Positions 13,306 through 39,692 of a stretch of DNA of 64,000 bases are shown here, in pieces (within the stretch, counting starts at the first letter, position 1; the number at the start of each line of letters is the position of its first letter). The stretch lies in the NCBI RefSeq assembly GCF_004104415.1, contig NZ_CP034669.1; one strand, written 5' to 3'. This DNA comes from Corallococcus coralloides (lineage in GTDB: Bacteria > Myxococcota > Myxococcia > Myxococcales > Myxococcaceae). The translations under genes were made by a program, and so were the position numbers. The notes under the pieces were generated by a model. It was not told the origin of the DNA. It saw only the letters and a list, made by a program, of their open reading frames with translations, and ran no database searches.

Positions 13306-13404
13306 GGCAGCCGACCGAGCACCGCTCGGAAACTTCCCAAGCCTTGCGCCCGCCCGATAGGATGTGGCGGTTTTCACTGCACTTTTTGCTGGGTGAAGGG
13401 CTTC

Positions 13405-16400
13405 ATGGAGCGTCGCGTCCTCATCGTCGAAAGCCAGAACGACTTCGCACTCAGCATGGCCTCCGTGCTCAAGAGCGCGGGCTACAACACGGCCATGGCC
13501 ACCACTGCGTCAGACGCGCAGCGGGAATTGGAGAAGCGCCGACCAGACCTCGTCGTCGTGCGCGCGGAGCTGCCGGACCAGTCCGGCTTCGCCCTCTGTG
13601 GGCAGATCAAGAAGGGCAAGTGGGGCCAGAACCTCAAGGTCCTCCTGCTCTCCTCCGACTCCGGCGTGGAGGGTCTGAACAAACACCGTGAGACGCCGGC
13701 CGCCGCGGACGGCTACCTCGTCATCCCGTTCGAGATGGGCGAGCTGGCCTCCATGAGCACGGGCATCGTGCCGCCCGGCTCCGACGAATCCGACGCGGAC
13801 CTGGACGCCGCGCTCTCCGGTGCGCCGCGTGAAGCCCCGCCGCCCATGCCCGGCGTGCGCACGGGCGCCCCGCCCAAGCTGCCCAAGCGCGAGCGCCGCA
13901 GCGCGATGACGGACGAGGACAAGTCCTTCATGGACCGGGCCTTCTCATCCATCGCGGACCGCAAGGCGGAGCTGCTGGCGGAGTCGCGTCAGCTGAAGCG
14001 CCCGCCCCCGCGCCGCGAGCTGATGGGCACGCCCGAGGGCAAGATTCAAATCCTCCGGGACGAGCTGAAGACGCGCGAAGCCCAGCTCGCGCGCCTGTCG
14101 GAGATCTGGAGCGTCCGCGAGCGCGAGCTGCTCTCCGTCGAGGACCGCCTCCACGAGAAGGACGTGGAGCTGCAGGGCCTGAAGATGCAGGTCGACGACC
14201 TGCTCAGGCGCTTCAACGACGCGCAGCAGTCCATCGTCCAGAAGGAGCGCGAGCACGGCGCCACCGTGGACGACCTGCTCCTCCAGAAGTTCTCCTCGGA
14301 GAAGGACCTCATCGAGGTCGTCGCCTCCAAGGAGAAGGACATCAACGTCCTGCGCAAGGAGGTCAACCTCCGCGACGAGGAGCTGGCCCGGCGCGGCGCG
14401 GATCTGGAGTCCTGGCGCAACGAGTTCGACAAGCTGGAGAAGCACCTCGGCGTCGTCACGCTGGAGTTCGAGGTCAAGGAGCAGAAGCTCCAGGACACCG
14501 TCCGCGCCAACGAGGCGGACATCCTCCAGCTGCGCGAGCGCGGCGATCAGTTCGAGTCCGAGCTGGCCCGCACCGTCAGCGAGCGCGACCAGCGCTATGC
14601 CGAGCTGGACGGCGAGCTCCAGGCCCTCCAGGAGCGGCTGACGCAGACGGAGCAGGAGCGCGACGCCACCGTGCGCGGCCTGGAGGCCCGGGCCACGACG
14701 GCGGAGGAGCACGCCAGCCGCTCGGACGCGGAGATTGAGCGCCTCAACGCCGAGCGCGCCGCCCTGGAGCAGCGCCTCACGCAGCAGGTGGCGGACCTGG
14801 AGTCCGACATCGCGCGCGTCACCGGCGAGCGCGACCAACTCCGGCTGGACAAGGACGCCCTGGAGGCGGACCTCACGCAGCGCGTGGAGGAGCGGGACGC
14901 GAAGCTCTCCGCGCTCGACCGCGAGCTGCAGGAGGCCATCGCCCGCAACGAGAACAGCGAGGCGGAGCTCAACGCCACCATCCAGCAGCACCGCGAGCGC
15001 ATCGGTGAGCTGGAAGGCGAAGTCGAGGCCGTCAAGACGCACCTGGAGGACCGCGAGAACGAGCTGACCGCGGAGCTCCAGGCGCTGCAGCAGGCCAAGG
15101 ACGCGCTGGAGCAGGACCTCACCAGCCAGCTGGAGGACCTGCGCGCGGCGAAGGACGCCCTGGAGGCGGACCTCAACGGCCAGATTCAGGCGCTCACCGA
15201 GCAGCTGGACGCGTCCCAGCGCCAGGGCGAACAGCTCTCCGCGCGCGTGGCCTCGCTCGAGGACACCGTCGCCCAGCGCGACGGCACCATCGAGGGCCTG
15301 CAGACCGACGTCTCCGACCGCGACGCCCGCATCGCCGAGCTGACCGGCAACCTGGAGGCCACGAGCCAGCAGCTCTCCGAGACGCAGAACACGCTCTCCA
15401 GCACGGAGGCCACCCTCGCGGAGACGCGCGGCGAGCTGGAGGCGACGAGCCAGCAGCTCTCCGAGACGCAGGGCACGCTCTCCAACACGGAGGCCACCCT
15501 CGCGGAGACGCGCGGCGAGCTGGAGGCCACCAGCCAGCAGCTCTCCGAGACGCAGACGCGCCTGGCCCAGACGGAGGAGACGCTCTCCACCACGCGCGGC
15601 GAGCTGGAGGCCACCAGCCAGACGCTGGCCACCACCGAGGCGACCCTCGCGGACACGCAGGGCACGCTGGCGCGCACGGAAGGAACGCTCGCCGACACGC
15701 AGGCGACCCTGTCCAGCACCGAAGGCACGCTGGCGGAGACGCGCGGCGAGCTGGAGGCCACCAGCCAGACCCTGGCGGACACCCAGTCCAGGCTCGCGCG
15801 GACGGAGGAGACGCTCTCCACCACGCGCGGCGAGCTGGAGGCCACCAGCCAGACGCTGGCGGACACGCAGGCCACGCTCTCCAGCACGGAGGGCACGCTC
15901 GCGGAGACCCGTGGCGAGCTGGAGGCCACCAGCCAGACGCTGACGGACACGCAGGCGAAGCTCGCGCAGACGGAAGGGACGCTCGCGTCCACCCAGGGCG
16001 AGCTGGAGGCCACCAGCCAGACGCTGGCCACCACCGAGTCCACGCTCGCGCAGACGCAGGACACGCTGGCGCGCACGGAAGGAACGCTCGCCGACACGCA
16101 GGCGACGCTGTCCAGCACGGAGGGCACGCTCGCGGAGACGCGCGGTGAGCTGGAGGCTACCAGCCAGACGCTGACGCAGACCCAGGAGACCCTGGAGTCG
16201 ACGCGCGCCGACCTGGCGAAGGTCACCTCGCACCGCGACGAGCTGGACGCGGAGCTCAACGAGACGCGCGACATCCTCCAGGAGACCAACGGCCTCCTCG
16301 CCCGCACCACCGAGGAGCGCGACGCGCGCATCGCGGATCTGGCGGCGCTCAACGCGGCGAAGGACGCGCTGGAGCAGGACCTCACCGGCCAGATTGGCCA

Positions 16401-18000
16401 GCTGCGCGCGGACCTGTCGGAGACGCAGGGCCTCTACGACGCGGAGCGCACCGCCCACGCGGCGCTCGCGGAGGAGACCACCGCGCGCATCCACGCCCTC
16501 ACCGGCGAGCGCGACAACCTGACCGCGGAGCTGAACGCCACCTCGCAGCAGCTGGCCGACACGCAGGGCCAGCTCGCCAGCACCCAGGACGCGCTGGCCC
16601 GCGAGGAGCAGGCCCACGCGCAGTCCCGCCAGGCCGCCGCCAGCGCCCAGGCGGAGCTCACGCGCCAGCTCACCGAGGCCCAGGCCAACGGCGAGGACCT
16701 GGCCGAACAGCTCATCGTCACCAAGCACGAGCTGGGCACGCGCGTGTCGGAAGTCACGCAGCTGTCCTCCACGCTCGCGCAGACGGAGGACGCGCGGCAC
16801 CACCTGGAGGACCGCCTCCAGACGCTCACCCACGAGTCGCAGCGCCGTGAGGAGCTCCTCCAGAACGAGGTCGACACCAAGGGCAAGGAGCTGTCGGACA
16901 CGCTCCGCAAGCTCACGCACGTGACGCAGGAGAAGATGCGTCAGGCGGAGGTGCTCAACCGCGAGGTCTCCACCCGCACGGAGCAGGTGAAGCAGCTGGA
17001 AGGCCAGCTGGAGCACCAGGCCTCCGAGGCGAAGAAGCAGGCGGACGCGCTCCACCAGCAGCTCGCCAACGTCTCCGGCGAGCTGGACGGGGCGCGCAAG
17101 GCCATCGCGGACCGCGACGGACAGCTGCAGCAGGCCGCGAACCAGCAGAAGAAGCTCACCAGCGAGCGCGACGGACTGGCCGGGCAGCTCCAGCAGGCCC
17201 AGGCCCAGGCGCAACAGCAGGCCCAGCAGGCCCAGGCCGCCGCCGCCGAGGCGAAGAAGCAGGCGGACGACCTGGCCGCGAAGCTCGCGAAGGCGGACCA
17301 GCGCATCGCGCAGCTCTCCCAGGAGGCCCAGAAGTTCGCCGCCGACACGGAGGCGAAGCTCAAGGACGCCCAGGCCCAGCTGCAGACCCGCACCAAGAAG
17401 GCCCAGGACCTGGAGCTGGCGCTGGAGAACGCCCAGAGCACCCGCGCCCGCGCGGAGAAGGACCTCAACGCGCGCGTCGCCGCGGCGGAGACCAAGGCCA
17501 ACGAGGCGGCCTCGAAGCTCGCCACGGCGCAGAAGGACCGCAAGGACCTGGAGGCCCGTCAGGCCAAGGAGCTGGAGGACCTCAACGCCAAGCAGAAGGC
17601 GGAGCTCGAGCGCCGCGAAGCCATCAAGGCGCAGGAGGTCGCCCGCCTCCAGACGTCCGTCCAGGAGAAGAGCAAGGCGCTCAAGGTCGCCGAGCTGGAG
17701 CTGGCCCGCTACAAGTCCAAGGCCCCGGCCGCCGCCCCCGCCGCGAAGGCCAGCGCCAAGGCCACCGAGGACGAGCACCTGGCCGCCACCGTCCAGGCGA
17801 ACCCGGTCATCCCGGCCGCCGCCAAGCCCCCCGCCAAGGCCACCGCCAGGCCGGCCGCGAAGAAGGCCGCTGCCGCGCCCACCCCCGTCCCCGTGGACGA
17901 GGAGGCCCCGGAGCGCACCATGGTGATGCAGCTGCCCACCGCCCCCGAAGCCGGTGGTGAGGACGACTGGACGGCGCTCGTCGACGAGCTCGACAAGTAG
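13405..18000 (+). CDS. aglZ: AglZ/FrzS-family gliding-motility protein: N-terminal pseudo-receiver domain plus a coiled-coil of about 1350 aa
   Basis: The N-terminus aligns to the FrzS receiver (RRPDLVVVRAELPDQSGFALCGQIKKGKW against FrzS RDRPDLVVLAVDLSAGQNGYLICGKLKKD); an Arg sits where the phospho-acceptor Asp is expected. The rest is heptad-rich coiled-coil with 28-aa repeats. Start is ATG at 13405, with an alternative GTG at 13393. Confidence 0.7.
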   Translation: MERRVLIVESQNDFALSMASVLKSAGYNTAMATTASDAQRELEKRRPDLVVVRAELPDQSGFALCGQIKKGKWGQNLKVLLLSSDSGVEGLNKHRETPAAADGYLVIPFEMGELASMSTGIVPPGSDESDADLDAALSGAPREAPPPMPGVRTGAPPKLPKRERRSAMTDEDKSFMDRAFSSIADRKAELLAESRQLKRPPPRRELMGTPEGKIQILRDELKTREAQLARLSEIWSVRERELLSVEDRLHEKDVELQGLKMQVDDLLRRFNDAQQSIVQKEREHGATVDDLLLQKFSSEKDLIEVVASKEKDINVLRKEVNLRDEELARRGADLESWRNEFDKLEKHLGVVTLEFEVKEQKLQDTVRANEADILQLRERGDQFESELARTVSERDQRYAELDGELQALQERLTQTEQERDATVRGLEARATTAEEHASRSDAEIERLNAERAALEQRLTQQVADLESDIARVTGERDQLRLDKDALEADLTQRVEERDAKLSALDRELQEAIARNENSEAELNATIQQHRERIGELEGEVEAVKTHLEDRENELTAELQALQQAKDALEQDLTSQLEDLRAAKDALEADLNGQIQALTEQLDASQRQGEQLSARVASLEDTVAQRDGTIEGLQTDVSDRDARIAELTGNLEATSQQLSETQNTLSSTEATLAETRGELEATSQQLSETQGTLSNTEATLAETRGELEATSQQLSETQTRLAQTEETLSTTRGELEATSQTLATTEATLADTQGTLARTEGTLADTQATLSSTEGTLAETRGELEATSQTLADTQSRLARTEETLSTTRGELEATSQTLADTQATLSSTEGTLAETRGELEATSQTLTDTQAKLAQTEGTLASTQGELEATSQTLATTESTLAQTQDTLARTEGTLADTQATLSSTEGTLAETRGELEATSQTLTQTQETLESTRADLAKVTSHRDELDAELNETRDILQETNGLLARTTEERDARIADLAALNAAKDALEQDLTGQIGQLRADLSETQGLYDAERTAHAALAEETTARIHALTGERDNLTAELNATSQQLADTQGQLASTQDALAREEQAHAQSRQAAASAQAELTRQLTEAQANGEDLAEQLIVTKHELGTRVSEVTQLSSTLAQTEDARHHLEDRLQTLTHESQRREELLQNEVDTKGKELSDTLRKLTHVTQEKMRQAEVLNREVSTRTEQVKQLEGQLEHQASEAKKQADALHQQLANVSGELDGARKAIADRDGQLQQAANQQKKLTSERDGLAGQLQQAQAQAQQQAQQAQAAAAEAKKQADDLAAKLAKADQRIAQLSQEAQKFAADTEAKLKDAQAQLQTRTKKAQDLELALENAQSTRARAEKDLNARVAAAETKANEAASKLATAQKDRKDLEARQAKELEDLNAKQKAELERREAIKAQEVARLQTSVQEKSKALKVAELELARYKSKAPAAAPAAKASAKATEDEHLAATVQANPVIPAAAKPPAKATARPAAKKAAAAPTPVPVDEEAPERTMVMQLPTAPEAGGEDDWTALVDELDK
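15340..16215. repeat. In-frame tandem repeats of about 84 bp (28 aa) inside the aglZ-like coiled-coil
   Basis: Protein repeat ETRGELEATSQ(Q/T)L(S/A)(E/D)TQ.TL(S/A).TE(A/G)TLA iterated at least 10 times. These are coding repeats, not a CRISPR array. Confidence 0.6.
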
Positions 18001-30046: not shown

Positions 30047-30871
30047 TCAAGGCGCGGGCGGCTCCTTCGGCAGCGCGCCTTCGTACAGCGCGGCCGAGCG
30101 CCCCATCATGAAGCCGTGGGGCAGCAGCTTCATCAGCGTCGCGAGGAAGCGGTTGAGGACGCCGGGCACGCAGAGCTCGCGGCGGTGCACGAACGCCTCC
30201 ACGGCGATGCGCGCGCAGGCCTCCGCGGACATGATGCCCACGTCGCCCGCCTTGAACTTCCGGTCCAGGCCGGACACCGACAGCATCTCCGTGGCGATGC
30301 CGCCGGGCGCGAAGACGGTGACGGACACGCCCGCCTTGCGCAGCTCGTAGGCCAGGCCCCGTCCGTAGCTGATGACGAACGACTTCGTGGCCGCGTAGGC
30401 CGTCTGGTACGGCAGCGGCGCGAAGCCCGCCGTGCTGGCGACGAGCATCAGCGCCCCGCCTCCGCCCTGCTTCGCGAAGTGCGCCCCGAAGCGCTGGGAC
30501 ATGCGCACCACGCTGGTGATGTTGGTGGCGAGCATCGCGTCGAAGGACTCGGGCGGCTGCTCCAGCGCGTGGCCGAAGTAGGTGACGCCCGCGTTGAGGA
30601 TGACGCCGTCGACGGTGCGGCCGGACGTGGCGGTCTCGAAGACGCGCGCGGCGTCACCAGGCCGGGTGAGGTCCGCGGAGAGGGGCAGCACCTGCACGCC
30701 GTGCGCGGACTCCAGCTCCGCCTTGAGCGCGGTGAGCCGGTCCTCGCGGCGGGCGACGGCGATGATGTGGGCGCCGTGCTCCTTCGCGAGCAGGCGGGCC
30801 ATCTCCAGCCCCAGGCCGGACGACGCGCCGGTGATGAGCACCCAGCGGCCTCGGAAATTCATCGGTTTCAT
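30047..30871 (-). CDS. Short-chain dehydrogenase/reductase (SDR)
   Basis: TGASSGLG NAD(P)-binding motif and YAATKSF catalytic YxxxK. Start at MKPMNFRGRWVLITGA. Confidence 0.8.
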   Translation of the reverse strand: MKPMNFRGRWVLITGASSGLGLEMARLLAKEHGAHIIAVARREDRLTALKAELESAHGVQVLPLSADLTRPGDAARVFETATSGRTVDGVILNAGVTYFGHALEQPPESFDAMLATNITSVVRMSQRFGAHFAKQGGGGALMLVASTAGFAPLPYQTAYAATKSFVISYGRGLAYELRKAGVSVTVFAPGGIATEMLSVSGLDRKFKAGDVGIMSAEACARIAVEAFVHRRELCVPGVLNRFLATLMKLLPHGFMMGRSAALYEGALPKEPPAP

Positions 30872-30957
30872 ATCGGGCGCGTTTATTTCGCGGCGCGGCG
30901 CCGGGCGCAACCGGGGAACAGCGGGCTTCGGGCGCCCCTGTTAGAGTCCGGCGCACC

Positions 30958-32061
30958 ATGCGCCTCTCCGGGTCGCTCGCCTGCTTCTTCCTGGCCCTCT
31001 CCACTGCCCCCGCCGCCTTCGCGGGGAGCGGCGTCTTCGTCACCGAAGAGGCCGTGGACGCGGTGGACCAGCCCGAGTCCTCCAAGGTCGTCTTCTCCGT
31101 GCAGCCGGGCGTGTCCTATCCGCTCATGAAGAAGGGGGGCCCCGAACGCGCGTGGTGCAAGCTCCAGGGGCCCAAGGCCGAGGGCTGGGTGCTCTGCGAT
31201 GGCACGCCCACGGATGCCGTCCAGAAGGCGCCGGGCACGGACGCGCTCGTGCGCGCGGACCATGAGAACACGCGCCAGCAGCAGGCGGCCCGGGTCGATA
31301 AGGCCGCGGATGTTGATGAAGAGACGGTGGCGGTGCGCGCCCCCGCGGGCCGCGCGGCGGCTCCGGGCGACGCGGCGGCGTGCGCGAGCACGTGTGAGCA
31401 ACCGCCCCTCTTCGCCAAGGCCCCGGCGCTGTCCGCGATGGACCGAGAGGTGCTGGATTTGTGCCCCGCGCGCCCCGACGCGAGCGTGAGCGCCGGGGAC
31501 GTGCAGCGCTTCTTCGCGAAGCACTACGACGACGCGCGGGTGCAGCGCGCGCTGTCCGCGGCGGGCCGTCCGGGCTCGCGGCAGGCGAACCTCGAATGGC
31601 TCACGAGCCTGTGGGTGAGCACCGGTCCGCGCAACGCGTTCACGCACGTCTTCTGCGGGGACGACTGGCAGCGCGGCCCGATTGGCGGCCTCCACTTCCT
31701 GCCCCGCTACGCGCAGCTCGAGGCGGAGGGAAAGGTCTGCTACCAGGGCCCGGTCCGGGGCGAGGACGCGGTGCGCGGAGAGCAGTACCTCATCCGCTTC
31801 AAGGGGCTGTCGCCGTGGTCCTGCGGCGTGAAGCGCACGGGCGGCTTCTCCACGTCACAGGACGCGGTCTCCATCGCCGCCATCGGCACCCGGGCGTTCG
31901 CGCGCTGCTGTGCGCGCGGCGGGGCGAAGAAGGAGGGCGGCGTGTACTCGGCGCCGGACGTGGGTGGCGGCAACTGGCGCATCTGGTGCGGCACGCGCAA
32001 CGGCACCTACGGCATCGCCACGCTGCACCCCACCGACGAAGCCGCCACCTGCGCGGAGTAG
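30958..32061 (+). CDS. Secreted protein with a C-terminal EndoU-like (XendoU/PP11 family) putative endoribonuclease domain
   Basis: Signal peptide MRLSGSLACFFLALSTAPAAFAG. C-terminal block NAFTHVFCGDDWQRGPIGGLHFLPRY resembles the EndoU FEHVFxGE ... GFHNW catalytic His motifs. Confidence 0.6.
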   Translation: MRLSGSLACFFLALSTAPAAFAGSGVFVTEEAVDAVDQPESSKVVFSVQPGVSYPLMKKGGPERAWCKLQGPKAEGWVLCDGTPTDAVQKAPGTDALVRADHENTRQQQAARVDKAADVDEETVAVRAPAGRAAAPGDAAACASTCEQPPLFAKAPALSAMDREVLDLCPARPDASVSAGDVQRFFAKHYDDARVQRALSAAGRPGSRQANLEWLTSLWVSTGPRNAFTHVFCGDDWQRGPIGGLHFLPRYAQLEAEGKVCYQGPVRGEDAVRGEQYLIRFKGLSPWSCGVKRTGGFSTSQDAVSIAAIGTRAFARCCARGGAKKEGGVYSAPDVGGGNWRIWCGTRNGTYGIATLHPTDEAATCAE

Positions 32062-32062
32062 C

Positions 32063-32091
32063 GGACCGGCGCCACGACGGAGCGCCGGTCC
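32063..32091. terminator. Perfect 10-bp GC hairpin between the convergent EndoU-like and A2M genes (putative bidirectional terminator)
   Basis: ggaccggcgc-cacgacgga-gcgccggtcc lies directly after the TAG at 32059-32061 and 17 nt before the A2M stop. Confidence 0.35.
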
Positions 32092-32107: not shown

Positions 32108-35100
32108 CTACTGGGCCTTGTCCACGGTGAACATCGTGCCCGTGGAGTACGCGGTGAACTCCGGCGCGTACATGGACTGCACCGTCGCCGGGCCCACGCG
32201 GAAGGTGCCCGCCATGTTCGCGCGCAGCCGGTACTTGAAGTTGTACTCACCGGCCGGCAGCGACTCGAAGAAGAAGTTCGTCCCCGAGTCGCGCGTCTCC
32301 TCGTACCAGACGATGCCCAGGTCCCACTTGTGGCGGGACCGCGCGTTCTCCGGCTCCAGGCCCGCGGCGCGCGGGTCCCTCAGGTGCACGTACTCCGCCG
32401 CGTGCTTCGTGCGCAGCGACAGCTGCACCTCCACCTCGTCGCCGGGCCGCAGCCGCGCGCCGTCGGACAGCGGACGCAGCAGCGTCTGGTTGCCTTCGCG
32501 GATGCGCACGAAGTAGCGGCGCGACACCTGGAAGAAGTCACCGCGCTCCTCCCTGGGCAGCTGCTCCGTGGAGAAGTGCCACGTGGCGGACGCGATGGCG
32601 AAGCCCGGCGTCGTCTTCTCCACCACCGTGGTCGCCGTGGCGGCGTTCACCTCCGGACCGGGGACGACCACCTGGTTCTTCTTCCCCGTGTACACGTCCG
32701 GCGAGAAGCTCAGGGTCACCGCCCTGGAGCCCACCGTCACCTTCAGCTCCTCGCGCGCGGACAGCGAGCCCTCCGCCTCCATGTAGTTCACCAGCGCGTA
32801 GAGCGCCTCCGCCGTGGCGCGCGTGGACTTCCAGTGGTTCACCTTCTTGTCCAGGAGCAGCCACTGCACCAGGCCCGCGCGGCGGGGGTCCTTCGGGCGC
32901 AGCTCCGACAGCGTGCGCAGCGCGAAGGCGTGCGTCTCCGTGGAGTCGTTGTACCAGAGCCAGCTCCGGTCCTCGGGCGCCCAGTACGTGCCCAGGTCCT
33001 GCGTCGTCTTCGCGGAGTCCATCACGCTGTCCCAGACCTTCTGCGCGTCCTTCGCGCGCTTCGCCCGGTTCAGCGTGAGGGCCAGGTACCCCTTGAGGTA
33101 CGGCGAGTGCTGCTTCCAGTGCTTGAAGGAGAAGTCGAGCATGCGCTGCCGCTCGGCCGCCGTGAGCGCCTCGCCCGTGTAGCGCGCGTCCGGATACGCC
33201 GACGCCACGAAGTTGAGGAACGTGAGGAACTCCCAGCCCAGGTCCTTCTTCATCAGCCGGTTCGCGTAGTCGTCCCGGAAGTGCTTCGCCAGGTAGCCCC
33301 ACGCGGGCTCCGTCATGTTGGGCGACACCTCCACCCCGTGCTCCATGGCGCGCGACAGGCCGTGCAGGATGTAGAGCGTCATGTACGGCGACGACGGGCC
33401 GCCCGGCCACCAGGGGAAGCCCCCGTCCGCGTTCTGCGCCTTGCGCAGCTTCTGCTGGGATGAAATGCGCTGGGCCTGGGCCACCTTCGGATCCAGCACG
33501 CGCAGGAGCGCCGGGTCGGACTCCGCCCCGCCCTTCGCCTCGTTGAGCCAGGGCGTCTCCTCCAGCGTCATCTTCCGGTTCGGGTCCACGTCGTCGAAGG
33601 TCTCGAAGCGCGTGCTGCGCTCGCTCAGGTCCCTGGCCACCTTCGCCACCGCCGGATACTTGCTGAAGAGGCTGGAGACGATGCCCGTGGACACGAAGCG
33701 GTTGAGCGTCTGCTCCGTGCACTCATAGGGGTAGTCCACCAGGTACGGCAGCGCCTGGAGCACGGAGTAGAAGAGCTGCGCGTCCACCGTCACGACGAGC
33801 TGCTCGTTCACCCGCGTGGGGTCATCCGACTTCTTCAGGTCCTCGAACGTCAGCGTGCGGCGGTCCTGGTTGTTCAGCATGGCGAAGCGCGACTGCGACA
33901 GGTGCATGCGGCCGGGCAGCACCGGCAGGGGCCGCAGCTCGCCGTCGCTGAACGCGCCCGTCTTCGCGACCACGCGGAAGGCCACCGGCCCCACCCGCGC
34001 GGGCGTGGTGATGGGGAAGCGCAGGTTCGTCCCCTTCCCCGCCGCCACCGTGAAGGCCTGCGCGGCCGTCTTCACGCCGAACTCCGCGAGCAGGCTCTTC
34101 TGCGTGTCCGGGTCCACGATGTCCAACGTGAGCTGGCCCTGCTGCGGCTGGGTCCCCGCGTTGTTCACCACGACCTCCAGCTCCGCGCGGTCGCCCTCGC
34201 GCAGGAAGCGCGGCAGGTACGGGCGCACCATCAGCTCCTTCACGCTGCGGGCGGCGCGCTGCGTGGAGCCCCCGCGCAAGTCCCGCGTGAGCGCGTGCAC
34301 CCAGACGTCCCATGCCGTCACCGAGTCCGGCACCGTGAACTCCAGCACCGCCGCCCCGTCCGGCCCGGTGAGCAGCTGCGGAATCCAGAACGCCGTCTCC
34401 GCGAAGTTGGAGCGCAGCGGCTCCTCCGGCCCCTCCCCCGGTTCCGGGGCGCCGGGAGCGCCCTTGATGATCTGGATGATCTCCCGCCGCTTCTGCTCCA
34501 GCACCCGGCCGGTCTTCGGCGCGGACTCCGCGGTGGACGGCGCGGGCGACGGGGGCGGGGGCGGGGGCGGCGCACCGTCCGATTCCCGCTGGACGGCCCC
34601 GGGCTTCATGGCGCGCAGGCGGCGGCCGCCGTAGGAGTTGCGGTAGCCCGGACCGCCCAGCCCGTAGCCCTCGCCGAACCTCAGCGTGTCGTCGTGGAGC
34701 TCCGGCGCGGAGGGGCCCCCCCGGAGGAGCTCGTCGAAGAGCCAGTCCGCGCCGAAGACGCCACCAGAGGCCCGGAAGTCCACGTACACCGTCTGCTGCG
34801 GATACAGCTGCGCCACCCGCGGCGGCGTGTGCGGTCCGAAGACGTTGAGCGACTGATCGTACATGTACGCGAGCAGCTCCGCGGCCCCCGCCTCCAGCTT
34901 CGCGCCCTTCGGCCCCTTCACCGTCACGCGGAAGGTCTCCTTCGCGCCGGGCCGCAGCGTGTCGCGGAACGTGGCGAACTCCAGGCTCAGCTCCTTGTCA
35001 TCGAAGGGCACGGCCACCGTCTGCTGGAAGCTCAGCGTCTGCCAGTCGCGCACCATCGAGAGCACCACCGTGAAGCCGCCGCGCAGGGACTCCGTCACCG

Positions 35101-38100
35101 GAAGCTCCACCACCGCGCGCCCCTGCCCCGCCGTCAGCTGGCGGTGCTCCACGCGATTGCGTCCCTGGTACACGTCCATCACCAGCGGCTGGCCCTCGAA
35201 GCCGGAGGCCACCATCAGCCGAGCCACCTCGCCCACGCGCACGGAAGCGCGCTCCGCCGCCAGCACCGCGGGCAACCCCGCCGGGGCGCGCGCCCCCGCG
35301 ACCACGAAGTCCCGCTGCGCGGTGGCCTTCTGGCCAAACGCATCCGTCGTCTCGTAGCGCAGGCGGTACGTCCCCGCGCGCAGCGCCGGCAGCTTCACCG
35401 TGGCGACACCGTCCGCGCCATGCGTCACGGCCGCCTGCGCCAGCTCCGCGCCGTCGTCCCAGCGTCGCAGCGTCTGCTCCACGTCATAGGCCGTGTCCCA
35501 GCGCCCCTTCTGCGCGTCCCCCGGCGTGGGCGAAGCCTCCCGGGCCGGCTGCGCGCCCGCGTCCAGGGGCCTGGGCTGCTCCACCGGAACCTCCGACGGC
35601 ATCAGCGGACGCCCCGGCGCCTTCAAGGCGATGAGCCGCCAGCGGCCCGCGCCAGCCTGCGGCGCGCCATCCAGGTTCGAGCGCACGAGCCGCACCTCCG
35701 ACGGGAAGTCCTCGCGGACGAAGCCCACGTCGGAGTCCACGCGGCCCTCCACCGACACGAAGCCCAGGCGGAAGGCCCGGCTCGCGGAGCGGGTCTCACC
35801 GCCCTCGTCCGTCAGGTCCGCCTCCACGCGGTAGCGCCACGACATGCCCTGGGCCTTCGCGAGCCGCTCGTCCGCTTCCGGCGTGAAGGCCACCGTGAAG
35901 CCGCCGTCCTCGCCCACCGTGGCCGTCCCGGAGGCCACCAGCTCCGTGGTGGCCGGGATGCGCTCCCAGAACCACCAGCGCGGCAGCACCGGCTCGCGCG
36001 ACACGCGCCACTTCACCGCGCCGCGCGTCACCGGCAGGCCGAAGTAGTAGCGGGCCTCGCCCTTGAACGTCGCGCGGCGGTTGAGCCGCAGCGCTTCCGG
36101 CGCGTCCTTCAGCGTCACCTCGAAGGTGGGCCGCTTGTACTCCTCCACGCGCACGCCCGCGTAGCCGCTGGGGCTCGTGCGCACCGTCCAGTGCCCCAGG
36201 GCCCGCCCCCCGGGAAGGTCGAACTCGCCCGCCGCCGACCCGAACGTGTTGGTGCGCACCTCGCGCTTCGCCACCTCCTGGCCATTGGCGTCCACGAGCG
36301 ACACCGTCACCGCCGAATCCGGCAGGACGCGGTAGCGCTTCGACGCCTCCTCCGGACGGTAGGCGACCACCTTCCACAGCAGCTTCTGCTGGGGCCGGTA
36401 GACGGAGCGGTCCGTGTAGATGAGCGTCTGGTCCTGCGGGGCCCACTCGTGGAGGGGGGACAGGTAGAGCGAGCCCGGAAGCAACATCACGCCCCGGCCC
36501 CGGCCCAGCACCAGCTCCAGGTCCTCGTAGCGGTCGGCGTTCTTGCCCGTGAGCAGCAGGTCGCCGTTCGCGTCCGTGCGGCGGCTGACGGTGGTGAAGC
36601 GGCGGGTGCCGTAGTCCGACTTCACCAGCCGCACCTCCACGTTCGGAGCGGCCGCCCCCGTGGCCCCGTCCACCACGTGGATCTCCGCCTGGTTGGGGCT
36701 CGCCTTGCGCACCGTCACCGCCCAGGGCGACACGGACATCGGCAGGGAGAGGATGCGGCTGTTCTTCTTCGCGAAGTCCTGGCGCGTGGACAGGACGATG
36801 ATGTACGCGCCCGCCTTGAGCGCCGGTGGGGTCACGAACGTCTGGTGACGCTGGAAGTCCGGCGTGGGCGGCAGCGCCATGCTCCACGAGGCCTCCGGCT
36901 TGCGCGACGCCACGATGCGGAGCATCTCCGCGGAGGAGGGGTACAGCGACAGGTCCTCGCCGGGCTTCGCGAGCCGTGCCTCCACATCCAGCGCGTACGC
37001 CCGGAAGTACACCGTGCCCACGTTGCGGTGGCCCACCAGGATGGAGCGCTTGCCCGGCCCGTCCACCTGCATCCCGGTCGCGAACAGCTCCGGCGCCTCC
37101 AGCCTGCCCACCAGCGCCGCGCACTGCACGCCGCCCACCGACTTCGGCCACGCCTCCGCGCCCGCCTTCGCCAGGGCATGCGCGGTGATGGCGCGGCCCG
37201 CCTTCTCCTCCAGCTCCGCGAGCTGGTTCTGGCCCTTGGACCACCACGGCACGTCCCGGAAGCCCTTCAGGTGCGCGGCCAGGTGCTCCCGGATGCGCCG
37301 CTGATCCGCGGCGTCGGTGAACGACGTCGTCAGCACTTCGTAGCGCCGCAGCCGCGCCTCCAGCGCCGCCTCGCGCCGGCCCGCCGCCAGGTGCCACGCC
37401 TCCAGGTCCCCCAGCACCGCCGCCACCTTCATCAGCGGGTGCGCGGAGGGGTCCTTCAGCTCCACCTTCGGCGTGCCCTCCAGCAGCGCGCCCAGGTCCA
37501 GCCGGTACACGCCCTGCTCCTGCTCCGGGCGCCACAGGTCCGTGTCGTCCAGCGAGTCCACCCACAGGTACGTCACCGCGTCGCGCACCGTGGAGCGGAT
37601 GCCCTCCGGATACGTGTTGGGCTGGAGGTACTCGGACAGCCCCTTCACCGGCTCGGTGCCGAACTTCCGCCGCGACTCCCAGACGGCGGCGTACGTGCGC
37701 TGGATCTCCGCCGAAAGCTGATCCTTCGTCCACGCCTTCAGGTCCACCGGCCCGGAGGACACCACCTGCTCGCGCTGGCCAATCTCGTAGCTGTACGCCT
37801 GCTGGTATTTCGCGAGCACCGCCGCGTAGAACAGGTGGAGCGTGGCCTGCTGCCGCAGCCCCTCCGGCCAGGGCTGCTCGCGCAGGAAGCGCACCGCCGT
37901 CTCATAGCCGTGCAGCCGCGTGCGCAGCTGCACCGTGCGCACCAGCGCGCGCGTCCACTCGTCGGCGTCACCCTGGGCCTTCGCCGCGGCGAGCCGGGCC
38001 TCGGCCCCCTGCGCGGCGGACTCGACCTTGTCGTCCTCGACGAGCGCGTCGATGGCCTTCCACGCCGGGGGCGCCTTCGCCGCGGGGGCCGCCACGGACA

Positions 38101-38170
38101 CGGAGGACAGCGCGAGGGACAACAGGCACAGGACGACGGCGGCGGTACGCGGGCGCGGTGGAGAAGACAT
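32108..38170 (-). CDS. Bacterial alpha-2-macroglobulin (YfhM-type, thioester-containing), 2020 aa
   Basis: Signal peptide; MG/A2M domains; intact thioester motif CTEQ in PYECTEQTLNRF; C-terminal receptor-binding-like domain. Confidence 0.85.
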   Translation of the reverse strand: MSSPPRPRTAAVVLCLLSLALSSVSVAAPAAKAPPAWKAIDALVEDDKVESAAQGAEARLAAAKAQGDADEWTRALVRTVQLRTRLHGYETAVRFLREQPWPEGLRQQATLHLFYAAVLAKYQQAYSYEIGQREQVVSSGPVDLKAWTKDQLSAEIQRTYAAVWESRRKFGTEPVKGLSEYLQPNTYPEGIRSTVRDAVTYLWVDSLDDTDLWRPEQEQGVYRLDLGALLEGTPKVELKDPSAHPLMKVAAVLGDLEAWHLAAGRREAALEARLRRYEVLTTSFTDAADQRRIREHLAAHLKGFRDVPWWSKGQNQLAELEEKAGRAITAHALAKAGAEAWPKSVGGVQCAALVGRLEAPELFATGMQVDGPGKRSILVGHRNVGTVYFRAYALDVEARLAKPGEDLSLYPSSAEMLRIVASRKPEASWSMALPPTPDFQRHQTFVTPPALKAGAYIIVLSTRQDFAKKNSRILSLPMSVSPWAVTVRKASPNQAEIHVVDGATGAAAPNVEVRLVKSDYGTRRFTTVSRRTDANGDLLLTGKNADRYEDLELVLGRGRGVMLLPGSLYLSPLHEWAPQDQTLIYTDRSVYRPQQKLLWKVVAYRPEEASKRYRVLPDSAVTVSLVDANGQEVAKREVRTNTFGSAAGEFDLPGGRALGHWTVRTSPSGYAGVRVEEYKRPTFEVTLKDAPEALRLNRRATFKGEARYYFGLPVTRGAVKWRVSREPVLPRWWFWERIPATTELVASGTATVGEDGGFTVAFTPEADERLAKAQGMSWRYRVEADLTDEGGETRSASRAFRLGFVSVEGRVDSDVGFVREDFPSEVRLVRSNLDGAPQAGAGRWRLIALKAPGRPLMPSEVPVEQPRPLDAGAQPAREASPTPGDAQKGRWDTAYDVEQTLRRWDDGAELAQAAVTHGADGVATVKLPALRAGTYRLRYETTDAFGQKATAQRDFVVAGARAPAGLPAVLAAERASVRVGEVARLMVASGFEGQPLVMDVYQGRNRVEHRQLTAGQGRAVVELPVTESLRGGFTVVLSMVRDWQTLSFQQTVAVPFDDKELSLEFATFRDTLRPGAKETFRVTVKGPKGAKLEAGAAELLAYMYDQSLNVFGPHTPPRVAQLYPQQTVYVDFRASGGVFGADWLFDELLRGGPSAPELHDDTLRFGEGYGLGGPGYRNSYGGRRLRAMKPGAVQRESDGAPPPPPPPSPAPSTAESAPKTGRVLEQKRREIIQIIKGAPGAPEPGEGPEEPLRSNFAETAFWIPQLLTGPDGAAVLEFTVPDSVTAWDVWVHALTRDLRGGSTQRAARSVKELMVRPYLPRFLREGDRAELEVVVNNAGTQPQQGQLTLDIVDPDTQKSLLAEFGVKTAAQAFTVAAGKGTNLRFPITTPARVGPVAFRVVAKTGAFSDGELRPLPVLPGRMHLSQSRFAMLNNQDRRTLTFEDLKKSDDPTRVNEQLVVTVDAQLFYSVLQALPYLVDYPYECTEQTLNRFVSTGIVSSLFSKYPAVAKVARDLSERSTRFETFDDVDPNRKMTLEETPWLNEAKGGAESDPALLRVLDPKVAQAQRISSQQKLRKAQNADGGFPWWPGGPSSPYMTLYILHGLSRAMEHGVEVSPNMTEPAWGYLAKHFRDDYANRLMKKDLGWEFLTFLNFVASAYPDARYTGEALTAAERQRMLDFSFKHWKQHSPYLKGYLALTLNRAKRAKDAQKVWDSVMDSAKTTQDLGTYWAPEDRSWLWYNDSTETHAFALRTLSELRPKDPRRAGLVQWLLLDKKVNHWKSTRATAEALYALVNYMEAEGSLSAREELKVTVGSRAVTLSFSPDVYTGKKNQVVVPGPEVNAATATTVVEKTTPGFAIASATWHFSTEQLPREERGDFFQVSRRYFVRIREGNQTLLRPLSDGARLRPGDEVEVQLSLRTKHAAEYVHLRDPRAAGLEPENARSRHKWDLGIVWYEETRDSGTNFFFESLPAGEYNFKYRLRANMAGTFRVGPATVQSMYAPEFTAYSTGTMFTVDKAQ

Positions 38171-38221: not shown

Positions 38222-38842
38222 TCAGGCCGCCGGGGGCGCCGGGGCCCGGCGCCGCAGCCCCACCACGTAGACCTCCATGCTGGCGCCGCGCGTGGCCTCC
38301 GGACGGACGATCTTCACCTCTTCGAAGTGCTTGCGCACCTCGTCACGGAAGGCCTCGAAGTCGCCCCCCATGAAGACCTTGGCCACGAACGTGGCGCCGG
38401 GCCGGCCGCGCGTGGCGGCCACCTCCAGCGCCTTGCCCGCGAGCCGCAGGCTGCGCGCCTCGTCCGTGCCCTTGATGCCGGACGTCTTGGGCGCCATGTC
38501 GGAGATGACCGCGTCGTAGGGACCGTCGTACAGCGCGGCCAGCTTCGCGTCGAAGTCGTCCGCGAGCACGTCCAGCACCGCCGTCGTCACCCACTTCTGG
38601 GAGAAGGGCCGGATGGCCGCGATGTCCACGCCGATGACGCGCCCGTTCATCCCCACGGCGTCCGCCAATATCTGGAGGAACCCGCCCGGCGCCGCGCCCA
38701 GATCCAGCACCGCCGCGCCCTTCTTCACGGACCCGGGGAAGCGCTTGAGGATCTCATCGACCTTGAACGCGGAACGCGCTCGCAGTCCCTCTTGCTTGGC
38801 TTTCTGGAAATAGTGGTCTTTAGGACGGTAGGGCTTGCCCAT
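38222..38842 (-). CDS. rlmE: 23S rRNA (uridine-2'-O)-methyltransferase RlmE (FtsJ/RrmJ)
   Basis: SAM-binding VLDLGAAPGGF and VISDMAP motifs. Start is MGKPYRPKDHYFQKAK (38842) or seven codons upstream (38863). Confidence 0.8.
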   Translation of the reverse strand: MGKPYRPKDHYFQKAKQEGLRARSAFKVDEILKRFPGSVKKGAAVLDLGAAPGGFLQILADAVGMNGRVIGVDIAAIRPFSQKWVTTAVLDVLADDFDAKLAALYDGPYDAVISDMAPKTSGIKGTDEARSLRLAGKALEVAATRGRPGATFVAKVFMGGDFEAFRDEVRKHFEEVKIVRPEATRGASMEVYVVGLRRRAPAPPAA

Positions 38843-38944
38843 GTCAGAAGCCGTCCCTAGCATCCGCTACTGTCTTCGGAAAGCCGGAGCAGTCGCGGCC
38901 TGTAGGCTGGCCGCGCCCACGGACTTCACCGGAGGGTTGGTGGC

Positions 38945-39352
38945 ATGGGCACCCGGAGCGTGACAGCGGCCTTGTGCATCTCCCTGCTCTTCGCGGGCGG
39001 GGCGGCGTTCTGCTACGCACGCGCGGAGGCCCTGCAGGCGGAGGGGCGCTGGCTGATGGCCCGGGGCAGCGCCCAGGCCTCCGACTTCGCCCAGAAGCTG
39101 GACGGCACCTCCGTGGACGCCCAGTTGAAGACCTTCAAGGAGCGCCGCGGCGTGATGGAGCAGGCCCACCGCTGGCAGCGCGGCATGCTGCTGGGCATCA
39201 TGGCCGCCGTCCTGTCCGGCCTGTCCGCCTACGTCCTCTTCCTCCTCAAGCGGCTGGACGACCAGCTCCTGGACGCCACCGGCGAGCTGCGCCGGCCCCA
39301 GGAAGCCACCTCCCTGCCCACCCCGGCGTTCGCGCCCAGCGTCCAGCGTTAG
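38945..39352 (+). CDS. Hypothetical two-TM membrane protein
   Basis: TM helices ALCISLLFAGGAAFCY and LLGIMAAVLSGLSAYVLFLL, with strong GC3 bias. Confidence 0.45.
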   Translation: MGTRSVTAALCISLLFAGGAAFCYARAEALQAEGRWLMARGSAQASDFAQKLDGTSVDAQLKTFKERRGVMEQAHRWQRGMLLGIMAAVLSGLSAYVLFLLKRLDDQLLDATGELRRPQEATSLPTPAFAPSVQR

Positions 39353-39404: not shown

Positions 39405-39692
39405 ATGCCCGGCTGCGCGCACTGCGGACACGCACTCGACATCATCGCGAATCAAGTGGGCCGGCGCGACACGTGTCCCGGCTGTGAAGAGGACCTGCGC
39501 TCGTGCCGCAACTGCCGGCACTTCGACGAGTCCGTGGCCAAGGCCTGCAAGGAGCCCTTCGCGGAAGCGCCCCGCGACAAGGACGAGGCCAACTTCTGCG
39601 AGCTCTTCCAGCTGGGCGAAGGCGGCCTGCACCAGAAGGCCTCACGCGACGCGATGGTCAGCGCCGCGGAGGCCCTCTTCGGCAGGAAGTAG
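39405..39692 (+). CDS. FmdB-family zinc-ribbon protein
   Basis: CAHCGH...CPGC...CRNCRH Cys pattern typical of Zn-ribbon_8/FmdB. Good RBS (GGGGAGGA) and strong GC3 bias. Confidence 0.55.
   Translation: MPGCAHCGHALDIIANQVGRRDTCPGCEEDLRSCRNCRHFDESVAKACKEPFAEAPRDKDEANFCELFQLGEGGLHQKASRDAMVSAAEALFGRK

Follow-up and report, generated by a model that had tools for sequence, protein, structure and literature searches.

The EndoU locus

We analyzed a stretch of 64,000 nucleotides from the Corallococcus coralloides genome (contig NZ_CP034669.1 of assembly GCF_004104415.1; G+C ~70%), which is referred to here as the window, and looked at one gene in it whose product can be assigned computationally to the EndoU family of ribonucleases. 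According to the listing of open reading frames (ORFs) and an exact-sequence look-up, the gene is complete and lies at 30958..32061 (+), precisely where an earlier note on this DNA had placed it. It begins with ATG at 30958, the most upstream in-frame start, and encodes 367 amino acids. The product is identical in sequence to WP_128797972.1 / QAT86379.1 (EJ065_4837) from C. coralloides, whose existing RefSeq and UniRef label is "EndoU domain-containing protein".

The gene lies between a divergent upstream short-chain dehydrogenase (SDR) gene at 30047..30910 (-) and a convergent downstream gene at 32108..38170 (-). The latter encodes the 2020 amino acid alpha-2-macroglobulin (A2M) that the earlier note had reported, and its identity is supported by Pfam matches to A2M, MG2, bMG10, A2M_BRD and TED. 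The flanking gaps measure 47 bp on the upstream and 46 bp on the downstream side, and because they are so short there is no space in the window for an adjacent small ORF.

Assignment to the EndoU family

The protein matches the Pfam family PF14436 (Bacterial EndoU nuclease) over residues 225-316 with E = 8.7e-07; its 29.8 bits exceed the family's gathering score of 25.3. The earlier note had suggested a search with a hidden Markov model (HMM), PF09412 (XendoU). A significant EndoU match was indeed found, though to PF14436; PF09412 itself gives 11 bits for the window protein, under its gathering score of 32.3. All of the 21 sampled homologs match PF14436, eight of them give sub-threshold matches to PF09412 (best E = 6.7e-06) and twelve show weak matches to coronavirus Nsp15. 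An NCBIfam search with the EndoU protein returned no match.

More distant relatives were collected by an exhaustive phmmer search of the C-terminal 228 amino acids against 1.84 billion cluster representatives, which gave 69 clusters at E <= 0.001. From these, 39 distant relatives were aligned with the window domain (alignment A2, 40 sequences), and in this alignment PF14436 is matched by 39 sequences (best E = 2.9e-30) and PF09412 by eight (best E = 1.6e-13). Compared with the sequences of the PDB, the A2 profile finds human EndoU (9ftw, E = 8.4e-10) and XendoU (2c1w, E = 1.6e-05); neither a single-sequence phmmer search nor the close-family profile A1 found a match among the PDB sequences, so that the broader A2 profile alone reached these two proteins. 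The same relatives are found by structure. An AlphaFold2 model was built from 21 sequences, with a mean predicted local distance difference test (pLDDT) of 77 and values of ~76-97 over the catalytic domain, and Foldseek returns 9ftw (E = 9e-08), 2c1w and then MERS Nsp15 as its best PDB matches, which places the model in the EndoU fold. The structural comparison proposed in the earlier note thus gives a strong match of the predicted model to both XendoU and human EndoU. From profiles and predicted structure taken together, the protein is shown computationally to be an EndoU-superfamily endoribonuclease in the long, XendoU-like form.

The distant metagenomic relatives (P0133-P0188) keep the long-form module, with the pattern C..PFFDD..AFDRAVL..CG..GFxHVFCGE..IGGLHF.GRY..KGY..TFYPD, in a variety of architectures. 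In P0151 the module follows an N-terminal TIR domain and a membrane segment, in others (e.g. P0187) it is fused to a metallo-beta-lactamase fold, P0135 and P0141 are membrane-anchored, and P0136 has a signal peptide and a possible SH3-like domain.

Export signal and domain architecture

The first 22 residues (30958..31023, +) form a predicted Sec-type, signal peptidase I (SPI) signal peptide, with cleavage expected between AFA and GS. The N-terminus, MRLSGSLACFFLALSTAPAAFA followed by GSG, combines a single basic residue with a hydrophobic core (Kyte-Doolittle maximum 2.19) and an A-x-A site, which is the layout of n-, h- and c-regions typical of Sec/SPI substrates. Neither a twin-arginine motif nor a canonical lipobox was found in this signal peptide. 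Lipidation at Cys9 was considered and rejected, since the cysteine lies 8 residues from the start, is not conserved and has no canonical lipobox around it. All of the 21 aligned homologs begin with a segment that looks like a signal peptide and has a hydrophobic core (Kyte-Doolittle maximum of at least 2.19); the mean identity of this segment among them is just 33%. From this layout we infer, in agreement with the earlier note, that the protein is exported through a Sec/SPI signal peptide.

Two parts of the protein lie between the signal peptide and the EndoU module. The first is a predicted SH3b-like domain (residues 24-81; 31027..31200, +), which has an SH3-like beta-barrel fold in the model and carries the conserved cysteines C67 and C80; SH3_3-type Pfam matches are seen in 2 of the 21 homologs (E = 0.007). 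This domain, which was not part of the earlier note, probably anchors or targets the enzyme to a cell-wall or matrix polymer. The second is a low-complexity, poorly conserved linker (residues 82-139; 31201..31374, +) of variable length, which differs among genera; its pLDDT is below 50 at residues 82-94 and 118-138. Over the 21 aligned homologs the mean identity of the linker is 20%, versus 70-73% for the catalytic domain and 73% for its C-terminal core.

The EndoU module itself consists of a helical N-terminal extension (residues 140-224; 31375..31629, +), with a CxxxC...PLF motif and C169, and the catalytic core (residues 225-367; 31630..32058, +). With ~228 amino acids it is of the long XendoU type including the helical extension, and this length, compared with a toxin tip of ~130 amino acids, had also not been recognized in the earlier note. 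By sequence and by structure this part aligns with the N-terminal extension that XendoU and human EndoU have, and it matches their helical bundle. Helices are modeled over residues 160-219, 192-198 residues of the model align with 2c1w and 9ftw, and the profile alignment spans human residues ~179-316.

The active site

Conservation was counted over 121 family sequences and residue correspondences were taken from HMM alignments with 9ftw and 2c1w. The earlier note had pointed to a block that resembles the two-His signature of EndoU enzymes, and this block proved to be the active-site hairpin AFTHVFCGDDWQRGPIGGLHFLPRY (residues 227-251; 31636..31710, +). In it H230 corresponds to XendoU H162 and human H285, D235 to E167 and E290, and H246 to H178 and H300; the human E290D variant stays active. 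H246 is invariant (121/121), D235 is found in 120 sequences, and position 230 is His in 115, Tyr in five (Stigmatella-like) and Arg in one apparently damaged sequence. The predicted catalytic lysine is K292 (codon 31831..31833, +; XendoU K224, human K343), which is again invariant. The spacing of the three residues, H-16-H-46-K, is identical with that of XendoU 162/178/224, and the placement of the lysine in the myxobacterial clade is eukaryote-like, compared with 3 residues later ('KGY') in the more distant bacterial relatives.

On the last strand, codons 355-357 (32020..32028, +) encode T-L-H, which corresponds to T278-x-Y280 of XendoU and T341-x-Y343 of Nsp15, with 'ivTfYPd' in the profile versus 'IGTAYP' in XendoU. 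At position 355 the sequences have T (97) or S (24), and at position 357 Y (89) or H (32). As far as can be shown computationally, the catalytic triad H230/H246/K292, the acidic D235 (His+5) and the last-strand T355 are therefore all in place. Absence of a significant family or structural match, or variable motif residues, had been named in the earlier note as grounds for giving up the EndoU assignment, and what we see is a significant match of both kinds together with motif residues that are conserved among homologs.

Tyr at position 230 is an active-site change confined to one lineage: the Stigmatella-like orthologs P0081-P0084 and P0088 carry Tyr in place of H230 (FTYVFCGDD) and keep H246, K292, D235 and all cysteines.

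It might be proposed that the protein has an EndoU fold without nuclease activity and serves as an RNA- or glycan-binding protein or as a structural component of the matrix. The H230Y substitution of one subclade fits such a role, as does the equivalent of XendoU S229, which is not conserved as Ser or Thr, and the PF14436 score is modestly above its threshold. We consider a catalytically dead protein very improbable, since an active enzyme would be expected to be constrained at just its catalytic positions, and H246, K292, D235 and T/S355 vary little or not at all, with H230 kept in all but six sequences.

Calcium ligands and cysteines

The helical N-terminal extension was described as specific to eukaryotes and was tied to the activation of human EndoU by Ca2+ (Malard et al., PMC11275989). 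In the human enzyme the essential Ca2+ ligands are E284 of site 1 and D179 of site 3 (PMC11275989). Human E284 corresponds to T229 of the Corallococcus protein, a position that is Thr in 121/121 sequences, and D179 falls at about S144, where homologs have S, T or R, so that the essential Ca2+ ligands are not conserved in this family. A dependence on Mn2+ should for this reason not be assumed.

What the family does conserve is cysteines. The mature protein has 12 of them, ten in the EndoU module (each in at least 120 of the 121 sequences) and two, C67 and C80, in 117, and about six disulfides may be expected from this number; such conservation is of the kind seen in extracytoplasmic proteins. 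Among the 40 sequences of A2, C318 and C344 co-occur strictly (both in 13, neither in 27), and so do C146 and C289 (both in 4, neither in 36), and C169, part of the extension, and C233, which lies three residues past H230, are each found in 39. Such a pattern points to disulfide-bonded pairs, among them one, C169-C233, that would tie the extension to the active-site hairpin throughout the family. Because the Ca2+ ligands are absent and disulfides appear to be present, the enzyme is probably cofactor-independent.

From this a broader hypothesis can be raised, which we regard as possible and put forward tentatively: the bacterial long-form clade may already have the helical extension, with a C169-C233 disulfide lock in place of the Ca2+ sites, and may act as a constitutively active, cofactor-independent extracellular RNase. 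If this is true, the complete XendoU-type domain would have arisen in secreted bacterial enzymes, and eukaryotes would later have swapped the covalent lock for a Ca2+-regulated one.

Homologs, gene neighborhood and the question of immunity

At E <= 0.001 the search found 162 homologs; for the best 120, identity is 50% or more over most of the length. They come from Corallococcus, Myxococcus, Pyxidicoccus, Hyalangium, Archangium, Cystobacter, Melittangium, Stigmatella, Aggregicoccus and related metagenome-assembled genomes (MAGs). A scan of one genome per species gave 72 loci, all of them myxococcal save one record labeled Comamonas that has myxococcal synteny. This record (L060, BNCN01000003.1, Comamonas sp. 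KCTC 72670) holds a tyrS-EndoU-A2M locus of the Myxococcus type, whose EndoU protein is 65% identical to the window protein, and it looks like a mislabeled or contaminated assembly, or like a myxobacterium.

Neighboring genes were classified in 77 loci. A tyrS gene lies upstream on the same strand in 49 of these, across genera, and A2M is convergent downstream in 42. The SDR gene stands as an insertion between tyrS and the EndoU gene in 14 loci, solely of the Corallococcus type (L005-L016 and L029 among them); in Myxococcus, Pyxidicoccus, Hyalangium, Archangium and Cystobacter, tyrS directly precedes the EndoU gene, both on one strand. The gap between these two genes goes down to 25 bp in the called genes of Cystobacter, which suggests that the two are co-transcribed there. 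An SRAP gene takes the place of A2M downstream in 13 loci (Archangium/Cystobacter-type and related MAGs), and 19 more distant loci have neither neighbor; in ten of these 19 an Lhr helicase gene lies upstream.

The earlier note had described a free secreted protein with no obvious immunity gene, and this description holds both in the window and in the 77 related loci, in which no recurrent family of small ORFs was found beside the EndoU gene. The only recurrent neighbors are tyrS, SDR, A2M, SRAP and Lhr, and the ORFs inserted between the EndoU gene and A2M are unrelated singletons. Two candidates for a functional partner were examined and rejected. SRAP, which we take to be a DNA-damage-response protein family, was rejected as an immunity gene since it occurs downstream solely in the Archangium/Cystobacter-type loci and related MAGs (13/77). 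A functional link between EndoU and A2M was rejected since the adjacency is limited to 42/77 loci, gives way to SRAP in Archangium and Cystobacter, is missing from the distant clade and is often interrupted by singletons.

The gene is single-copy across the Myxococcaceae and Archangiaceae, and identity declines in step with taxonomy. PADLOC defense models gave no match for the EndoU protein. Based on the neighbor survey, the identity that tracks taxonomy, the conserved catalytic domain and the null PADLOC result, the EndoU gene is vertically inherited and stand-alone, with an exported product and without a cognate immunity gene, and the adjacency of A2M is a lineage-restricted synteny.

These data bear on the question of whether the protein is an antibacterial toxin effector. 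Such an effector would be exported by Sec and possibly released by a type II secretion system (T2SS) or in vesicles; its SH3b domain would bind the wall of the prey, and the EndoU domain would enter the prey and cut tRNA or mRNA, as the EndoU domain of CdiA-CT does, with self-protection provided by export or by an immunity protein encoded elsewhere. In favor of this option, PF14436 is known mostly from polymorphic toxin systems, lysostaphin and endolysins use SH3b domains to target the walls of other bacteria, and the organism is a predator. Fusions of distant relatives to TIR or metallo-beta-lactamase domains also suggest a setting of conflict. Yet the features by which a polymorphic toxin is recognized are missing, as the protein has 367 amino acids and no delivery domain, there is no adjacent immunity gene, and the C-terminal core is the most conserved part of the protein. 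No translocation or receptor-binding module was found in it, an adjacent or recurrent immunity gene is absent from the 77 loci, C-terminal polymorphism is absent, with the catalytic domain the best conserved, and the gene is inherited vertically within a housekeeping neighborhood. The fold, too, is far more like that of eukaryotic EndoU of the housekeeping type than like that of the CdiA-CT toxin. We therefore regard a toxin effector as unlikely.

Proposed function

The explanation that fits the data best, to which we would give a probability of roughly 0.6, is that the protein is an exported XendoU-like EndoU RNase that digests RNA released from prey or from lysed kin, and not an immunity-paired polymorphic toxin. 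The protein would leave the cytoplasm unfolded, through Sec, and its folding would be restricted to the outside of the cytoplasm, where about six disulfides would form from the 12 conserved cysteines. An enzyme that folds after export would be inactive in the cytoplasm of its producer, and this would explain why an immunity gene is not needed. It would act in the periplasm, on vesicles or in the medium, on single-stranded RNA, by a metal-independent His/His/Lys 2'-O-transesterification of the kind described for RNase A and EndoU (PMC3482391, PMC11275989, PMC7297114), the expected products being 2',3'-cyclic phosphate plus 5'-OH ends. The SH3b-like domain would tether the enzyme to a polymer of the wall or matrix. 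In the literature, predation by myxobacteria is described as using secreted or vesicle-borne hydrolases, nucleases included (PMC10849154); the EndoU protein may be one of the hydrolases of these predatory, lysis-prone bacteria and a functional analog of secreted RNase A or RNase I.

Several observations weigh against this explanation or limit how far it can be taken. The chief observation that a simple enzyme does not explain is the H230Y subclade of Stigmatella, since these five sequences may mean that the family tolerates the loss of canonical catalysis or has a role beyond RNA cleavage. The Tox-EndoU signature was described as H, H, [SNT], [SNT], with the second Ser/Asn/Thr equal to XendoU S229 (PMC3482391); in our alignment, which is possibly shifted here, S229 falls on the invariant F297 and the neighboring position 298 varies between S, P, A and T. 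Uridine specificity is uncertain for this reason and should not be assumed. The SH3b assignment rests on the predicted fold, as the window protein has no match to Pfam SH3 families at E <= 10. The disulfide pairs, and a role of folding after export in place of immunity, are things that we infer. In addition, a periplasmic and an extracellular location are indistinguishable from the sequence, and a literature search (EndoU in Myxococcus, myxobacteria and Corallococcus, and secretomes) found no study of the family in the library that could be searched.

The question of location leads to another option, in which the protein is a periplasm-resident housekeeping RNase like E. coli RNase I, held by its SH3b domain to the cell's own peptidoglycan, where it would degrade periplasmic RNA or act after the cell's own lysis in development. 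The signal peptide comes with no recognizable signal for passage across the outer membrane, the SH3b-like domain is of the peptidoglycan-binding type, the gene is a conserved single-copy core gene, and A2M, a periplasmic protease trap, is convergent in 42/77 loci. However, the A2M adjacency is absent in Archangium, in Cystobacter and in the distant clade, and none of the evidence distinguishes retention from secretion. A periplasmic RNase, which we consider quite unlikely, differs from the prey-RNA explanation solely in the location and in the source of the substrate. As to the toxin effector and the non-catalytic protein, the evidence disfavors both, and the exported RNase that digests RNA from prey or lysed kin remains our preferred explanation.

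Comparison with known systems

The nearest relatives of known structure are XendoU and human EndoU (PP11; 2c1w, 9ftw; PF09412). The Corallococcus protein has the same His-His-Lys spacing as XendoU, and it shares with the two enzymes an acid at His+5 and a last strand with Thr-x-Tyr/His. A signal peptide and disulfide-rich accessory domains are likewise found in animal EndoUs. The differences are also clear: sequence identity is ~18% and PF09412 stays below its threshold, the ten cysteines of the catalytic domain are absent from XendoU and human EndoU (HVFCGDD versus HVFSGE/HVFVGE), and the accessory domain is somatomedin-B there and SH3b here.

The EndoU domains of polymorphic toxins (Tox-EndoU/PF14436; for example CdiA-CT of E. 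coli STEC_O31, 5hkq) resemble our protein in the best-matching Pfam model, in the superfamily, in the two-His chemistry and in being bacterial. In contrast to it, they are C-terminal tips of ~130 amino acids on very large delivery proteins, are variable between strains and have an adjacent immunity gene.

Stand-alone, Sec-secreted bacterial EndoU proteins were already predicted in 2011 in Wolbachia and Ehrlichia (Zhang et al., PMC3113570). Compared by their description and not by sequence, these are like the myxobacterial proteins in being stand-alone, in having a signal peptide and in lacking an immunity-gene context. They differ in belonging to intracellular symbionts and pathogens, with host transcripts as proposed targets (PMC3113570), whereas the myxobacterial family is found in free-living predators and has an SH3b-like domain.

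By function, there is an analogy with vertebrate RNase A and E. coli RNase I, which are exported, have multiple disulfides and no adjacent immunity gene, and yield 2',3'-cyclic phosphate, RNase A also with a His-His-Lys site. RNase I is an exported, disulfide-stabilized RNase of the T2 family. Both differ from the EndoU protein in family and topology, so the likeness is one of lifestyle and mechanism, without demonstrated sequence homology; for RNase A an evolutionary link with EndoU was proposed (PMC7297114). The nidovirus enzymes Nsp15 and Nsp11 differ in that they are viral, cytoplasmic and hexameric, have other N-terminal domains, and select uridine by S294, which has no conserved counterpart in the myxobacterial protein.

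Taken as a whole, this is a fairly ordinary, uncharacterized enzyme of the known EndoU family and not a new type of system. It is a conserved and probably extracellular RNase of predatory myxobacteria and a candidate member of their set of prey-digesting enzymes, and its practical value is modest. The family bears on the origin of the eukaryotic EndoU domain and of secreted, disulfide-stabilized RNases. Since this bacterial, disulfide-rich long form keeps the extension and the acidic relay residue and lacks the Ca2+ ligands of human EndoU, it could be used to test whether the metal dependence of EndoU is allosteric.

Other features of the window

The 46 bp gap between the convergent EndoU and A2M genes contains a perfect 10-bp GC-rich hairpin, GGACCGGCGC...GCGCCGGTCC, with a 9-nt loop (32063..32091, on neither strand in particular). 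Its folding energy is -24.2 kcal/mol (z = -2.7 against shuffles) and it has no T-tract. The hairpin is likely a bidirectional transcript end and a putative terminator. A scan for sigma-70 promoters gave zero sites, and the sole terminator-like match of the scan lies within the coding region of the signal peptide, at chance level.

The A2M protein (32108-38170, -) bears a CTEQ motif of the thioester type (YPYECTEQT) as well as a signal peptide. Thioester A2Ms frequently have a pbpC-type partner gene beside them. Here the A2M gene is flanked directly by the EndoU gene on one side and an FtsJ/RlmE methyltransferase gene (38222-38863) on the other, and not by a pbpC-type gene. The FtsJ gene is followed by two small ORFs, 38945-39352 (+) and 39405-39692 (+), with 135 and 95 amino acids and no Pfam match. 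Called genes of ~137-140 and exactly 95 amino acids are found at the same position in Myxococcus and Cystobacter (L001-L003), and both are conserved hypothetical genes; the product of 95 amino acids is Cys-rich, with CxxC motifs.

Further away, an ORF at 13393-18000 (+) encodes 1535 amino acids, with an N-terminal domain like a response-regulator receiver and, after it, a very long coiled coil that contains many tandem copies of a unit of ~30 amino acids (...TEGTLAETRGELEATSQTLADTQATLSS...). This ORF explains the extreme AT skew (0.38-0.48) at 14-18 kb of the window. Its product is similar to AglZ and FrzS, two proteins of M. xanthus motility.

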